From Verrucomicrobiota bacterium (GTDB lineage Bacteria > Verrucomicrobiota > Verrucomicrobiia > Opitutales > Opitutaceae): a DNA stretch of 64,000 nucleotides. A model generated the notes under the pieces. That model did no database searches, was not told the origin of the DNA, and was given only the letters and a program-made list of their open reading frames with translations. How positions within the stretch are numbered: position 1 is the first letter of the stretch; each line of letters opens with the position of its first letter. Positions 13,821 to 22,889 of the stretch are shown here, one piece after another. A program made the translations under genes and the position numbers. The stretch covers positions 39,949-103,948 of the forward strand of contig JBEHYR010000007.1 of assembly GCA_048498075.1 (NCBI GenBank), read 5' to 3'.

Positions 13821-13887
13821 GGAGGAGCCTGCTTGCAGGCGAGCCCGGCGGGCGAAAGTCCAACATCGCCTGCAAGCAGGCTCCTAC
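13821..13887. repeat. Inverted REP doublet, family A ((GT/GG)AGGAGCCTGCTTGCAGGCGA)
   Basis: 22-bp arms at 13821-13842 and 13866-13887. Confidence 0.9.
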
Positions 13888-14042: not shown

Positions 14043-16193
14043 GCGATACAGCGCCGTCGTCGGCGCCGCCGTGAGCACATTGTATTGCCGCATCGCGAGC
14101 CGCCACCATTCCGCCAGCGACGCCGCCGGACAACTCCACAGCTCCCGGTGCAGCCAGATCATCGATTCCGCATCGAGGAGCAGCGCCATCTTTTCCTTCG
14201 TCGTGAAATTTTCCGGCCCCTCGTGCAACAGCCGGTGCCGCAGCTGCGCGAACCACTCGCGCGCCTCGTCGTTCGAACGGCGTTGCCGCAGCAGCGCGAC
14301 ATGCATCGCGTTCACATACGGATCGAGCACCGCCTGCAGCAGGCCGTAATCGGCGCGCAGCGGCCGGATCGGCTGCAAGTGCCGGTAGCACTCAGCCAGA
14401 TTTTGGCGCAGCCGCCGCAGTTCGTAGTTCGGCTGCGTCTCCTCCGGCGTGAGAAACAGCCCCACCTCCCGCGCGCGCCGGCCGAATCGGGCCTGGCTCA
14501 ACAAAATCGAAATCGGAATCGCGAACACCAACCCCGCCACCACCGGGCTCAGCCACCAGAAAAATGCCGGCAACAAAATCAACGCCGACAGTCCCCACAC
14601 GAGCCCGACCAGCGACTGCCCGACGTGCGTGATGATCGCCTCGCGCCAGTCGGTGCCGTCCTCGCCTTCCGCGGAACCCCGCTTCTGCGTCACCCACGAC
14701 ACGCCCTGACCGAGCAGCGTGAAGAGCACGAACTTCGAGTGAAACATCATGTTGATCGGCGCGAGCAGGGTCGAAATCGCCATCTCGCCCAGCGCGCTGA
14801 TCGCGAAGCGCACGCGCCCGCCGAATTGCTCCACTTCCTCGCGCCGGCCGAGCATCACGAAAATGCTCACCAGCTTCGGCAGGAAGAGCAGCAGCATCGT
14901 GAACAGGAACAGCGTCAGCGCTTCCGGCACCTCGATCTCATAGCCGAACAGCGACGTGTAGTCTTCCGGCCGCGCGCGGCCCGAGGCAGGCGAGGTCGCC
15001 AGATCGAGGGCGTTGATCGAGCTGAGAAACAAAAACAGCAGCCACAGCGGCGACGACAGATAAGCCATCACGCCCATGAAAAGATGGAAGCGATTCGCCG
15101 GCCGGAATCCGCGCGCCGTCAGCAGCCACGCGTGCTGCATGTTGCCCTGGCTCCAGCGCCGGTCGCGTTTCGCGCTCTCGATCAACGTCGGCGGGCCTTC
15201 CTCGTAGCTGCCGTCGATGTCGTGCGCGAGCCACACCGCCCAGCCCGCCCGCCGCATCAACGCCGCCTCGACGAAATCGTGCGATAATATCCGCCCGCCG
15301 AACGGCTCGCTCCCCGGCAAATCCGGCAGCGAGCAGTGCTCCATGAACGGCTGCACGCGGATGATCGCGTTGTGCCCCCAGTAATTTCCCTCGTGCTGCT
15401 GCCAGTAGTGCAGCCCCGCGAGAAAAAGCGGGCTGTACACGCGATTCGCGAACGACTGCAGCCGGGCGTAGAGCGTCTCGCCGTTCACGATCCGCGGCGC
15501 GGTCTGGATGATGCCCGCCTGCGGATTTTTTTCCATCAACGACACGAGTTGCACGAGCGCCCGGCCGGTCATGATCGAGTCCGCATCGAGCACGACCATG
15601 TAACGATAATTTTTTCCCCAGCGCCGCAAGAAGTCCGCGATGTTGCCGGCCTTCTTGTTGATTTGATTCAGCCGCTTCCGGTAAAAAATTTTTCCGAACC
15701 CGTCGACTTGCTTGCAGAGTTCCAGCCACGCCACCTCTTCCACGATCCATTGCGAGGGCTGGTTCGAATCGCTGAGCACGAAGAAGTCGAAGTGCTCCAG
15801 CTTCTTCGTCTCCTGCACGGAGCGAAACACCACGCGCAAGCCCTCGAACACGCGGCTCACGTCCTCGTTGAAGACCGGCATCACGATCGCGGTCGAAGCG
15901 AGCGGCACTTCCTCGCCCCGCGCCAGCGTCGCCATCACCCGGCTGCTGTCGCCGCCACGGTTGATCACGTAAAACCCCGCGAGCGCCGTGCAGAAGCCCA
16001 CCGCCACCTGTGAAAACAGCACCACGAACAGCAGCAGCAGCGTGAACTCCAACGCCGTGATACCGTCGCGCCAGAGCAAATCGGCCATGAACCACGTCGC
16101 GAGGCTCGTCAGGAAAAAGATCGACGAGAAAAACGAGAACCGCCGCCGGTTCAGCCGGGCGGAGGTCATGCGTTCGTTGAAAGCGTAGCGCAT
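14040..16193 (-). CDS. opgH: Osmoregulated periplasmic glucan glucosyltransferase OpgH/MdoH
   Basis: MPVFNED, KKAGNIADF, LDADS, YWGHNAIIR, ILSHDFVEAALM, RDRRWSQGN. Confidence 0.96.
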   Translation of the reverse strand: MRYAFNERMTSARLNRRRFSFFSSIFFLTSLATWFMADLLWRDGITALEFTLLLLFVVLFSQVAVGFCTALAGFYVINRGGDSSRVMATLARGEEVPLASTAIVMPVFNEDVSRVFEGLRVVFRSVQETKKLEHFDFFVLSDSNQPSQWIVEEVAWLELCKQVDGFGKIFYRKRLNQINKKAGNIADFLRRWGKNYRYMVVLDADSIMTGRALVQLVSLMEKNPQAGIIQTAPRIVNGETLYARLQSFANRVYSPLFLAGLHYWQQHEGNYWGHNAIIRVQPFMEHCSLPDLPGSEPFGGRILSHDFVEAALMRRAGWAVWLAHDIDGSYEEGPPTLIESAKRDRRWSQGNMQHAWLLTARGFRPANRFHLFMGVMAYLSSPLWLLFLFLSSINALDLATSPASGRARPEDYTSLFGYEIEVPEALTLFLFTMLLLFLPKLVSIFVMLGRREEVEQFGGRVRFAISALGEMAISTLLAPINMMFHSKFVLFTLLGQGVSWVTQKRGSAEGEDGTDWREAIITHVGQSLVGLVWGLSALILLPAFFWWLSPVVAGLVFAIPISILLSQARFGRRAREVGLFLTPEETQPNYELRRLRQNLAECYRHLQPIRPLRADYGLLQAVLDPYVNAMHVALLRQRRSNDEAREWFAQLRHRLLHEGPENFTTKEKMALLLDAESMIWLHRELWSCPAASLAEWWRLAMRQYNVLTAAPTTALYR

Positions 16194-20009: not shown

Positions 20010-20076
20010 GGAGGAGCCTGCTGGCAGGCGATGATCCGCCTTCAACCACTGAAATCGCCTGCCAGCAGGCTCCTCC
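20010..20076. repeat. Inverted REP doublet, family A
   Basis: GGAGGAGCCTGCTGGCAGGCGA (20010-20031) and its reverse complement (20055-20076). Confidence 0.9.
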
Positions 20077-20103: not shown

Positions 20104-21549
20104 CTAAAGTTTCAGCCGCAGCACGGCCGTCTGTCCCCCGCGGCCAACGAGCACGACGGCCTCCGTGCGCAGCTTGTCCGCCTCGATCGCCGCGAGCTGC
20201 GCGACCGCCGCCGCGAACGTCTTCACTTCCACGCCGTCGATCTCCTTGATCCAATCGTCCGCGCGCAACCCGGCCGTTGCCGCCGGACTGTTCGGCTTCA
20301 CGAAGTGCGCGATCACACCCGTCGCCTCGCTGACCTTCGCGCGCCGCGCCACCGCGTCGTCGTGCACGAATTCGCGCGCCGTGAATCCCAGCCGCTCGAA
20401 GTATTTCCGCTCCGCCTCGGCGAACAACTTCGGCTGTTCGCCGAGCACGATCTTCGCGTCCACCTTCGCGCCCGCTCTCAGCACGGTGAACGTCACCGCA
20501 TCGCCCGGCCGTCGCTTCTGGATCTCGCGATCGACATACGCGATCGCCACGCGATCCGGCCGCAACCGCGGCAAGGGCTGGCCGTCGATCGCGAGCAGGA
20601 TGTCGCGATCCTTCAATCCGCCCGCCGCCGCCGGACTGCCGTCGATCACCTCGCTGAGCACGAGCGCCGACTGCGAACCGAGTTTCAGATATTTCGCCAC
20701 TTCCGACTCGACTGGTTCCAGTCCGTAAGCGCCGAGCCATGGCAGCGGACGCCCGAACACGTTCTTCGGAATCCGGCCGAGATACGGCAGCACCTCGGGC
20801 GCGAGCAACGCCGCGCCGCTCTCCTCCACATTGACCATGATCACCGGCAAGCCGCCGCGATCCTCGCGCGAGAACTGCACGTAATTTTGCCCGAACGCGC
20901 TCGCCGCGATCCCGACGAACTCGCCGGCGCGATTGAACGCCGGCAATCCCGGCCCCGCGATTTCCTGCTGCGCGATCGCCGTGCGCTGCGGCAGCGACTG
21001 CACGAGGGCGACGCGGCTCATGAGCAGATAGGGAATGAAATCTTCCTCCTTGTTGCGCAGGCCGATGCCCCACAGCTCCTCGGCGACCGCGGGCTCCGAA
21101 AATTTTTCCGCGGCAAACGTCGTGATCGGCACCAGCGCCGCGCGCATCGATTCCGCGACGCGCACGAAATGCCAGCCCGTGAGCGCATCCTGTCCGAGAT
21201 ATTCCGCTGGCGCGCTCTCGGGATCGCCCGGCCGGTAGACCTTGAATTCCTTCAACTGCGACGGCGTGCTGCGTGCGTTCACCGCCGCCGAGGGCAGGAT
21301 GATCGTGCCGTCATGATCGATGACGGTCCCGTAGGCGATCGCCGGACGCCGGTCGGTCTCCGTCTCCATATAATACTCCACTGCGACGACGGTCTTGACG
21401 CGTTCCGCCCAGAGCGTCGCGAGATCCGCCGCGCGGACCGCTGAAACCGCGAGCAACGCGCAACACACGCCATGTAGGAGCCTGCTTGCAGGCGATTTCC
21501 CGGCGCGAACATCGCCTGCAAGCAGGCTCCTACCAAAAAACGTCATCAT
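20104..21549 (-). CDS. Trypsin-fold plus 2x PDZ protein, catalytically degenerate HtrA paralogue
   Basis: GTVIDHDGTII...GQDALTGWHFVRV...GLPAFNRAGEFVGI; PDZ motifs GSPAAAGGL and NSPAATAGL; no TNAHV or GNSGG. ATGA overlap with the upstream stop. Confidence 0.8.
   Translation of the reverse strand: MMTFFGRSLLAGDVRAGKSPASRLLHGVCCALLAVSAVRAADLATLWAERVKTVVAVEYYMETETDRRPAIAYGTVIDHDGTIILPSAAVNARSTPSQLKEFKVYRPGDPESAPAEYLGQDALTGWHFVRVAESMRAALVPITTFAAEKFSEPAVAEELWGIGLRNKEEDFIPYLLMSRVALVQSLPQRTAIAQQEIAGPGLPAFNRAGEFVGIAASAFGQNYVQFSREDRGGLPVIMVNVEESGAALLAPEVLPYLGRIPKNVFGRPLPWLGAYGLEPVESEVAKYLKLGSQSALVLSEVIDGSPAAAGGLKDRDILLAIDGQPLPRLRPDRVAIAYVDREIQKRRPGDAVTFTVLRAGAKVDAKIVLGEQPKLFAEAERKYFERLGFTAREFVHDDAVARRAKVSEATGVIAHFVKPNSPAATAGLRADDWIKEIDGVEVKTFAAAVAQLAAIEADKLRTEAVVLVGRGGQTAVLRLKL
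21474..21533. repeat. Inverted REP doublet, family A, inside the predicted CDS
   Basis: GTAGGAGCCTGCTTGCAGGCGA at 21474-21495 and its reverse complement at 21512-21533; exactly 60 bp. Confidence 0.9.
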
Positions 21550-22889
21550 GGTTTCAAAACGTAGAGCGAAATCTGCCGCGACCGCTCCACCTCGACAAGC
21601 ACCGGCTCGGGCTGCGCCTCATACGCCGCGTGTACTTTTTTGATGACGGCGAGCGAATCGATCGGCTGCTGGTTGATCTTCGTCACGACGTCGCCGCGGG
21701 ACAGTCCCGCCACGGCCGCCGGAAACCCCGGCTGGAGGCCGATCACCACGACGCCGTTCGCATCGGGCAATTGATTCTCGCGCGCATAGGTCCGGGAAAC
21801 GCGCCGCACGCTCAGTCCCCATTTTTCGAACGCCCACTCCTCGCCCACGCGGCTCTCGAGTTTCTCGGTGACCACCGCGTAGTCGCGGGTCTCCGCGCCG
21901 TGTTTCACGGTCAGCGTCAGCGTCGTGCCGACCGGCTGGCTCGCGATCAGATCCTGGATCGGCGGCAATTGCTCGGGAAACCGGCCGTCGACTTTCGTGC
22001 CGTTGATCGCGAGGAGAATATCTCCGCCGCGGATCCTCGCGCGCGCCGCGGGCGAGTCGCGGTCGACGTTGTTGATCAGCATGCCGGTGTTCGCCGACAG
22101 CGAGTAAAAGCTTTCGAAATCCTGCAGGTCGCGCGGCACGATCCCGATGTAGCTGCGCGTGACGGTGCCGTGCCGCACGAGTTCCGCGACGATGCGCTTC
22201 GCGATGTTCCCGGGGATCGCGAAGCCGAGATTGTCGGCGCCGGCGTAACCGCGTGAATTGATGCCCACGACGCGACCGTCCTCGGTCACGAGCGGGCCGC
22301 CGGAGTTGCCCGGATTGATGGCGGCGTCCGTCTGCAGCCAGGTGTTGAACGTGCCGGTCTCGTAGCCGTTCACGCCACGTTCGTCTTCGAAGTAGCGATT
22401 GTTGTTGGAAACGATTCCGCGCGTCGCCGTGCGGGTGAGACCAAACGGCGTGCCGACGGCGTAAACGGTTTCGCCGACGGTGATTTTCCGACTGTCTCCA
22501 AATTCTGCATGCGCGAACTTCAACCCGCGGCGTTTCACTTCGACGAGATCGAGGCGGAGCAACGCGAGATCGGTCCAGTGATCCCAGCCGACGAGCGTGG
22601 CGTTGACGCGCTCGAGACTCGCGAGCGTGACGGAAAGCTCGACCGCGCGCGGACTGGCGACGTGGGCGTTCGTGAGCACGAGGCCGTCGTCGGACAAAAT
22701 CACGCCGGAGCCGATGCTTGACTCGAAGCGGCGCGCGCCGGCCTCGAAGGCGAGTTCGCGCACGTCGATGCGCACGACGGCGTCGAGCACCCGGTTGAAC
22801 CCGCGACTCATCGCCGCGCGCACGGGTGCGGCGAAGGCCAGCGACGCGAGGACCAGCGCGAAGATTGACCGGGCAGGGAAAGGTTTCAC
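21546..22889 (-). CDS. HtrA/DegP-like serine protease with PDZ domains
   Basis: Signal peptide from GTG 22889; intact triad LTNAHV, DHWTDLAL, INPGNSGGPL. Confidence 0.92.
   Translation of the reverse strand: MKPFPARSIFALVLASLAFAAPVRAAMSRGFNRVLDAVVRIDVRELAFEAGARRFESSIGSGVILSDDGLVLTNAHVASPRAVELSVTLASLERVNATLVGWDHWTDLALLRLDLVEVKRRGLKFAHAEFGDSRKITVGETVYAVGTPFGLTRTATRGIVSNNNRYFEDERGVNGYETGTFNTWLQTDAAINPGNSGGPLVTEDGRVVGINSRGYAGADNLGFAIPGNIAKRIVAELVRHGTVTRSYIGIVPRDLQDFESFYSLSANTGMLINNVDRDSPAARARIRGGDILLAINGTKVDGRFPEQLPPIQDLIASQPVGTTLTLTVKHGAETRDYAVVTEKLESRVGEEWAFEKWGLSVRRVSRTYARENQLPDANGVVVIGLQPGFPAAVAGLSRGDVVTKINQQPIDSLAVIKKVHAAYEAQPEPVLVEVERSRQISLYVLKP

Follow-up and report, generated by a model that had tools for sequence, protein, structure and literature searches.

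The GTAG and CGTC superfamilies of repetitive extragenic palindromes (REPs) were described by Di Nocera, De Gregorio & Rocco (2013, BMC Genomics 14:522; PMC3733652), and intragenic GTAG REPs were most numerous in Opitutus terrae. Many of the intragenic REPs in that survey lay at the N-termini of open reading frames (ORFs), and for most of these the authors suspected that the start had been misannotated (PMC3733652). The supplement of the same survey includes PFL_1387, a periplasmic protein of Pseudomonas fluorescens whose residues 10-31 derive from a REP dimer reading SPASRLLQ. We analysed a comparable case in a 64,000-nucleotide (nt) stretch of an Opitutus genome, referred to below as the window: a REP doublet at positions 21474-21533, situated in the first codons of a gene for a protein with two PDZ domains (the PDZ gene), whose start overlaps the stop codon of an upstream htrA gene. 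This doublet is very probably translated in frame as part of the export signal of the PDZ protein. The locus resembles the published cases in its GTAG-headed palindromes, present singly or as inverted dimers, which account for 20-30 residues inside ORFs of the genus Opitutus. It differs from them in that the start is fixed here by 20 orthologous loci, and in that a reading-frame filter is seen in repeat lengths that are multiples of 3. The repeat family concerned, family A, is itself absent from O. terrae, the species with the most intragenic GTAG REPs in the survey.

Systems of inverted REP doublets forming hairpins (REPINs) and REP-associated tyrosine transposases (RAYTs) are reportedly the subject of Bertels & Rainey 2011 and Nunvar 2010 (cited via PMC8049555). 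Family A shares with these systems inverted REP doublets, long hairpins, copies in the hundreds, variable spacers and a REP-flanked Y1/HUH transposase. However, REPINs are described as essentially extragenic, whereas the copy at 21474-21533 appears to be coding, and the RAYT candidate found here is a tandem pair that falls below the NCBIfam cut-off (65 vs 80 bits).

The sequence-only reading of the window had likened the insertion to the Rickettsia palindromic elements (RPEs). In the account of Ogata et al. (2000, 2002) summarised in PMC3733652, these are palindromic sequences lying in frame in genes that stay functional, some of them N-terminally; RPE-4 and RPE-6 of R. conorii are CGTC-tagged. 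An in-frame palindrome in a gene that remains intact and conserved is indeed the common trait, and the likeness holds as an analogy of behaviour only. The two sequence families appear unrelated, being set apart by description (CGTC tag vs GTAG here), and RPEs typically form surface-exposed segments of mature proteins, whereas the Opitutus insert falls in a signal peptide predicted to be cleaved. The closest precedent is instead provided by the intragenic GTAG REPs of Opitutus terrae and Pseudomonas (PMC3733652). A further comparison concerns Escherichia coli, where ribosomes stall at REPs that lie no more than 15 nt from a stop codon (Liang, Rudd & Deutscher 2015, Mol Cell 58:431, cited via PMC12306157). 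Those stalling REPs are untranslated, whereas the hairpin discussed here doubles as the 5' coding region of the gene that follows and overlaps. The phenomenon as such is already known, and the locus is a well-supported example of it rather than a new mechanism. Its interest is that of a comparatively anchored case of an N-terminal intragenic REP that appears truly coding, a question left open by the 2013 survey (PMC3733652). For annotators, a REP downstream of a start is by itself no ground for trimming that start.

The repeat and the overlapping gene pair

The genome examined is an Opitutus assembly of 6.04 Mb (65% G+C, 130 contigs), in which the window corresponds to C7:39949-103948; handles beginning with C, G and L denote contigs, genomes and loci, respectively. 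The features needed for the argument are listed below, with their strand in brackets and a slash marking a predicted cleavage site.

21474..21533 (-): 60-bp REPIN, made of two inverted GTAG-headed REPs and a 14-nt spacer, in frame from codon 6 base 2 to codon 26 base 1
21511..21533 (-): 5' arm of the REPIN in gene sense, GTAGGAGCCTGCTTGCAGGCGAT, an exact match to the family consensus, encoding (G)RSLLAGD
21497..21510 (-): spacer in gene sense, GTTCGCGCCGGGAA, 14 nt, of the rare 14-nt-spacer subfamily (4 of 178 doublets)
21474..21496 (-): 3' arm in gene sense, ATCGCCTGCAAGCAGGCTCCTAC, an exact match, encoding (K)SPASRLL(H)
21546..21549 (-): ATGA overlap, with the PDZ-gene ATG at 21549-21547 and the htrA stop TGA at 21548-21546
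20104..21549 (-): PDZ gene, two-PDZ and HtrA-like, 481 amino acids (aa), ORF starting ATGATG
21546..22889 (-): upstream gene for an HtrA/DegP-type serine protease with Trypsin_2 and two PDZ domains, putative start at GTG 22889
21430..21549 (-): predicted 40-residue signal peptide, from inspection and alignment with orthologues ending xRA/AD
21466..21468 (-): alternative in-frame GTG at codon 28, a rival start, 5 nt beyond the foot of the hairpin

The arms, GTAGGAGCCTGCTTGCAGGCGAT at 21474-21496 (+) and 21511-21533 (-), are 23 nt each, 100% complementary and 14 nt apart. Each is laid out as GTAG-GA-GCCTGC-TT-GCAGGC-GAT, which is a small GTAG-headed palindrome, i.e., a REP; as a singlet it folds into a 5-bp stem. 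The doublet as RNA folds with -50.9 kcal/mol into a perfect 23-bp stem, and its 141-nt context has a folding z-score of -6.1 relative to shuffled sequences. Its structure and copy number mark the element as a REPIN from a family of GTAG-headed REPs; REPINs of this kind are moved by a RAYT (Y1/HUH) transposase. The window holds nine arm copies of family A at up to 3 mismatches, against none expected from shuffling, and these include the doublets 13821/13865 and 20010/20054. An intrinsic terminator was considered for the hairpin and rejected, as no U-run follows the stem on either strand: in gene sense a T-run (TTTTTT) precedes the stem and CATGGCGTG comes after it, and on the opposite strand it is followed by an A-run.

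The repeat begins 16 nt inside the PDZ-gene coding sequence, which is 12 nt past the htrA stop codon. The overlap context is ccATGA, and no intergenic gap separates htrA from the PDZ gene. Several claims of the sequence-only reading were thereby recovered as it had put them, namely the overlap of ATG 21549 with the upstream stop, the exact 60-bp doublet beginning within the first six codons (a perfect 23-bp inverted repeat from codon 6), the doublets of the same family at 13821 and 20010, and the strong hairpin just after the start codon, which extends from +17.

Start codon, reading frame and signal peptide

The orthologous locus was read at the DNA level in 27 related genomes, which frees these loci from the bias of called proteins, and starts were compared in the 20 loci of the family where htrA and the PDZ gene are neighbours. 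Each of these 20 has an ATG at the htrA stop, overlapping it as ccATGA in 19 and adjoining it as TAATG in one, and every such ATG shares its frame with the mature protein. Between this ATG and a conserved anchor there are 57 to 198 nt; 13 different lengths occur, each a multiple of 3 and free of stops. Across a noncoding stretch the ATG would be expected in frame only about one third of the time per independent length change. Moreover, several orthologues have a plain signal peptide of 19-23 residues from that very ATG, e.g., MKRPLLLLALLLAAFPLRA/AD and MNIFARKSLPLLIGLATVASLRA/TD. Because these plain signal peptides begin there and the frame is kept in all loci, the comparison identifies the overlapping ATG as the ancestral, conserved start, and the stretch from there to the hydrophobic core as translated and free in length. 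The frame and the conserved start, like the identity and copy number of the element, are what the sequences show.

From ATG 21549 the gene reads MMTFF-GRSLLAGDVRAGKSPASRLLH-GVCCALLAVSAVRA/ADL, in which GRSLLAGDVRAGKSPASRLLH constitutes residues 6-26. Sec signals cleaved by signal peptidase I have a positively charged n-region, a hydrophobic h-region of 7-15 residues and small residues at -3 and -1. By inspection the predicted peptide has these parts: a charged n-region (residues 1-26, of which 21 are repeat-encoded), the h-region GVCCALLAVSAV and the c-region VRA, with predicted cleavage before ADL; the boundary xRA/AD is conserved in orthologues. Every Arg or Lys that precedes the hydrophobic core (R7, R15, K18 and R23) is encoded by the repeat. 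An apparently empty site is found in the G009 orthologue, where the sequence runs ACG TTT AAA TCT TTT GGC GTG. Comparison with it suggests a net insertion of 63 nt (21 codons) in this lineage and an n-region that carried no positive charge before the insertion.

A REP or REPIN occupies this spot in nine other orthologues, in frame in every one. Eight of them carry family-A REPs or REPINs; in the ninth, from G010, the REPIN belongs to another GTAG family. The family-A REPIN of G011 has a 32-nt spacer between perfect arms, and G002, G003 and G006 each have a single REP encoding KSPASRLLQ. In four metagenomic orthologues, which were reached by protein search, the DNA confirms family-A REPINs with spacers of 14, 26, 26 and 23 nt. 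The six family-A REPINs at the site, including that at 21474-21533, measure 60, 60, 69, 72, 72 and 78 bp, all divisible by 3. The genome-wide mode is 67 bp, and doublets of a length divisible by 3 amount to only 30 of 178 (17%) in this genome; multiples of 3 at the site are the pattern that a reading-frame filter would produce. It is this filter that the locus makes visible, with only the REPIN length variants divisible by three surviving here. The sequence-only reading had placed the repeat in frame in a signal-peptide-coding region and credited it with all the Arg and Lys of the n-region, and the orthologue alignment it had proposed as a check supports the first statement: the overlapping ATG is the conserved start, and the lengths are all in frame. 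The translation agrees with the second.

Several points weigh against translation of the repeat from ATG 21549. There is no Shine-Dalgarno-like sequence upstream of this ATG, and initiation there would rest on inferred coupling. The hairpin of -50.9 kcal/mol from +17 should hinder initiation and early elongation. The predicted n-region, at 26 residues, is unusually long. Finally, the four metagenomic orthologues were found via called proteins, which biases this subset toward in-frame cases.

Two orthologues deserve separate mention. In the G010 orthologue (L015) the REPIN of the other GTAG family lies about 40-100 nt after the ATG; it has arms GTAGCGCAGGCATCCTGCCTGC, a 17-nt spacer and a folding energy of -53.8 kcal/mol, and is in frame. 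The orthologue in G004 (L034-L036, G004:C1:764514-765894) appears broken across several frames; the assembly is a single contig and 87% complete, and the breaks are probably assembly indels and not the mark of a pseudogene. No REP was found at its N-terminus, although that genome has 258 family-A arms.

Origin and persistence of the repeat

On the best reading, the repeat is a passenger that a permissive n-region tolerates, and the site, immediately past the htrA stop, is one that has been hit repeatedly. Since the htrA stop and the PDZ start overlap, a REPIN landing at its usual position after a gene end would fall in the first codons of the next gene. Such a copy could persist under three circumstances: its length is a multiple of 3 (the 60-bp subfamily, net 21 codons), the reading frame used avoids the sole stop-containing frame of the REP (G/TAG, one of six), and the n-region of a cleaved Sec signal peptide would tolerate almost any sequence. 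Ribosomes would start at ATG 21549, probably via coupling to htrA termination, and then read through the repeat; the product would be a 40-residue signal peptide with repeat-encoded positive charges, removed at VRA/ADL. A stem of -51 kcal/mol at +17 should also tie expression of the PDZ gene to ribosomes that come in from htrA. In this account we infer that the repeat is actually translated, that translation is coupled, that the signal is cleaved, and that the insertion is neutral and not beneficial. The locus may serve as a natural system for the effect of a hairpin of about -51 kcal/mol at +17 on coupled translation, and for how much sequence the n-region of a signal peptide can absorb.

The origin of the insertion can be approached from the distribution of REPs on the gene tree. 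REP-bearing lineages are scattered on it, one of them within a clade of other genera, and the nearest relatives of this genome (G007, and G008, which is O. terrae) are without the repeat; because of this, several independent gains at a repeatedly hit site are the simplest reading. A single ancient insertion at +16, inherited by many Opitutus lineages and decayed or lost in others, seems possible but rather doubtful. It would account for the 5' boundary at +16 from the ATG common to this genome, L037, L038 and L040, for the similar 3' junction (CTAC-A-GG) in this genome, L038, L040 and the G002 clade, and for the rare 14-nt spacer length that this genome has in common with L037; the long unrecognisable N-terminal regions in G007, G008 and G013 could then be decayed copies. 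It has to contend with that scatter and with spacers that differ completely in sequence and length (14, 23, 26 and 32 nt), as well as with arms that are perfect despite 25-38% protein divergence; G009, with its apparently empty site, lies inside the singlet-bearing clade. The 5' junctions, compared between orthologues, show no evident target sequence in common.

Two observations sit uneasily with independent gains, namely the +16 boundary in four lineages and the conservation of arms in the sister pair L038/L040. In this pair of metagenomic orthologues (positions 1517-1588) the REPIN arms are identical at 44 of 46 positions and the spacer at 14 of 26, while the rest of the gene is 80% identical and its third codon positions 63.5%, so that the arms appear more conserved than coding constraint explains. 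Taken together, the common boundary and the conserved arms would imply either targeted insertion or arms that are kept or refreshed at the DNA level within a coding region. In L037, one arm has decayed (5 of 23 positions mismatched) with the frame intact. The changes in decayed arms across orthologues, counted by hand, comprise about five synonymous ones among nine events, too few for a test; this share is suggestive of constraint at the protein level.

An alternative to the tolerated passenger is a repeat that is translated and also selected, either because the hairpin sets the ratio of HtrA to its PDZ partner or because the Arg and Lys residues became the working n-region. We regard this as unlikely. 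The hairpin could act through protection of the htrA 3' end, stalling of terminating ribosomes or throttling of coupled re-initiation, and its position, 12 nt past the htrA stop, is within the 15-nt range of ribosome-stalling REPs in E. coli (Liang 2015, via PMC12306157). Of the three genomes with at least 250 family-A arms, two have the site occupied, though there are only about 270 elements across the whole genome studied here, and the scatter of occupied lineages makes several gains likely. The arms of L038/L040 were conserved beyond the remainder of the gene, and without the repeat the n-region would carry no positive charge. On the other side, most orthologues, including the nearest ones (G007, and G008 of O. 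terrae), do without a REP here, and the arm of L037 has decayed while the frame stays. The genomes are densely packed with REPs, so that chance occupancy is not rare, and near-perfect arms equally fit recent independent insertions. The sequence-only reading had spoken of a repeat recruited into a Sec signal; in its adaptive sense this wording is not retained, as a permissive n-region that tolerates the repeat accounts for the data just as well.

An improbable variant treats the first codons of the PDZ gene as a long-lived docking site for REPINs, with arms kept identical to a master copy and a stem that works as a valve for HtrA/PDZ coupling. The arms may then be kept up by targeting or homogenisation that depends on a RAYT, or by selection acting on the stem as RNA or DNA; the peptide may be a by-product and the nucleic-acid structure the selected feature.

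Still less probable is a downstream shift of the functional start to GTG 21468 or TTG 21456, which would turn the REPIN into an untranslated intercistronic hairpin and its open frame into a by-product of high G+C. Such starts are available in frame at codons 28 and 32, open frames arise easily as five of the six frames of a REP are without stops, and the suspicion of Di Nocera et al. (PMC3733652) about most N-terminal intragenic REPs points the same way. A product from GTG 21468, however, would begin MCCALLAVSAVRA, a 13-residue signal stump with no charged n-region, and as this GTG lies only 5 nt past the foot of the stem, its ribosome-binding region would be locked in the 23-bp hairpin, with no accessible one outside. 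The same holds across the family: a downstream GTG or TTG leaves peptides of 10-13 residues without an n-region in every REPIN-bearing orthologue, and wherever translation began downstream, G011 and three metagenomic orthologues would keep a hydrophobic core of only 10-12 residues. Retention of the frame and of multiple-of-3 lengths in all nine other REP-bearing orthologues, and the in-frame ATG at the htrA stop in 20 of 20 loci, stand equally against it. A true start downstream of 21474, which the sequence-only reading had named as the finding that would overturn it, is disfavoured for these reasons.

Family A and the PDZ gene in the genome

Family-A arms number 480 genome-wide at up to 4 mismatches, 276 of them exact, spread over many contigs; they group into about 270 elements, among which are 178 hairpin doublets. 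The spacer mode is 21 nt (113 of 178 doublets), giving a modal REPIN of 67 bp, and spacer sequences vary widely. Only four doublets have a 14-nt spacer; the other three, at C42:927, C50:1427 and C9:8905, have spacers related to that in the PDZ gene. Because such copies exist elsewhere in the genome, the 60-bp form is classed by sequence as a small REPIN subfamily, and its origin by an in-place 7-nt deletion of a 67-bp REPIN is unlikely. Outward from the arms, the flanking bases follow the consensus A-T-(C/T)-(C/G)-G. Elements of the family lie at a median distance of 49 nt from the upstream stop, 15% of them within 15 nt, a distribution that weakly backs a "3'-end niche" for REPs. When arms are compared across genomes, 429 are counted here, 278 in G011 and 258 in G004; four further genomes have 6-56, and O. 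terrae and the remaining ones lack the family.

Y1-transposase (PF01797) matches number six in the genome, two of them adjacent, in tandem, on C47:42269-43460. This pair, outside the window, is located just downstream of a secA-like gene; a perfect family-A REPIN stands ahead of each ORF, and the contig ends within the second one. One of the two matches NCBIfam NF047646 REP_Tyr_transpos (E 5.6e-18), with 65.2 bits, below the cut-off of 80. The RAYT-like tandem pair is the likely mobilising enzyme of family A, in the arrangement expected of a REPtron.

The peptide SPASRLLQ of the GTAG-1 elements of P. fluorescens Pf-5 (PMC3733652, Additional file 3) equals the peptide of the Opitutus family (window 21474-21496). 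Comparison of the peptides suggests that the REP core is almost identical between a gammaproteobacterium and a verrucomicrobium.

Genome-wide counts inside coding sequences rest on a crude heuristic of third-position G+C (GC3) and ORFs, which gave one strict internal copy; inspection added a handful more, and the family is mostly extragenic. The genome-wide scan for in-frame REPs that the sequence-only reading had proposed does yield copies in coding sequences. REP singlets lie in frame inside an SDR domain (C74:2676-2698) and a Ham1/RdgB domain (C56:21526-21548), in both of which the Pfam match spans the insert, and inside a DUF255 thioredoxin-like protein (C47:12479-12501). Such copies are precedents within this genome and lend support to translation through the repeat of the PDZ gene.

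Three other export signals in the genome, on C88, C13 and C22, have family-A repeats. On C88:14247-14330 (+) a REP singlet at 14283, which encodes EIACKQAPT, follows the sole in-frame ATG and precedes the twin-arginine motif SRREFLK of a GFO/IDH/MocA oxidoreductase; the ATG is preceded by the ribosome-binding site GGAGAGGAAGG. The predicted twin-arginine translocation (Tat) signal of this protein can only exist if the REP is translated. Two further cases were noted, with starts as read in this genome alone. At C13:88349-88371 (-) the n-region of a Peripla_BP_2 binding protein contains the repeat as …EKSPASRLLH-GAVLWVCAATICLAGA, and at C22:81765-81832 (-) a REPIN stands before AAILLASACLFSTGC in an alpha/beta-hydrolase lipoprotein.

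As regards the PDZ gene itself, its 481-aa ORF is intact, and the mature part is 54-77% identical to orthologues. The match to HtrA/DegP is limited to the two PDZ domains, which align to those of the upstream protease with 26% identity; the N-terminal 215 residues have no sequence match, and no trypsin domain was detectable by sequence in residues 41-255. "Pseudoprotease" is a plausible candidate label for this protein. In public annotation the exact 481-aa sequence is on record, i.e., ATG 21549 was used, which reflects only the choice of a gene caller; a 454-aa form is not on record there.

A second REPIN of the family lies at the other end of the gene.

20010..20076 (unstranded): family-A REPIN, 27 nt past the PDZ-gene stop, with 2 mismatches per arm and a 21-nt spacer

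It is also about 20 nt before a riboflavin-synthase-like gene, and the PDZ gene is thus bracketed by REPINs. At the far end of the pair, GTG 22889 as the htrA start leaves only 18 nt to the divergent leuS ATG (22908); either the divergent promoters are packed unusually closely here, or htrA starts further in, at ATG 22811.

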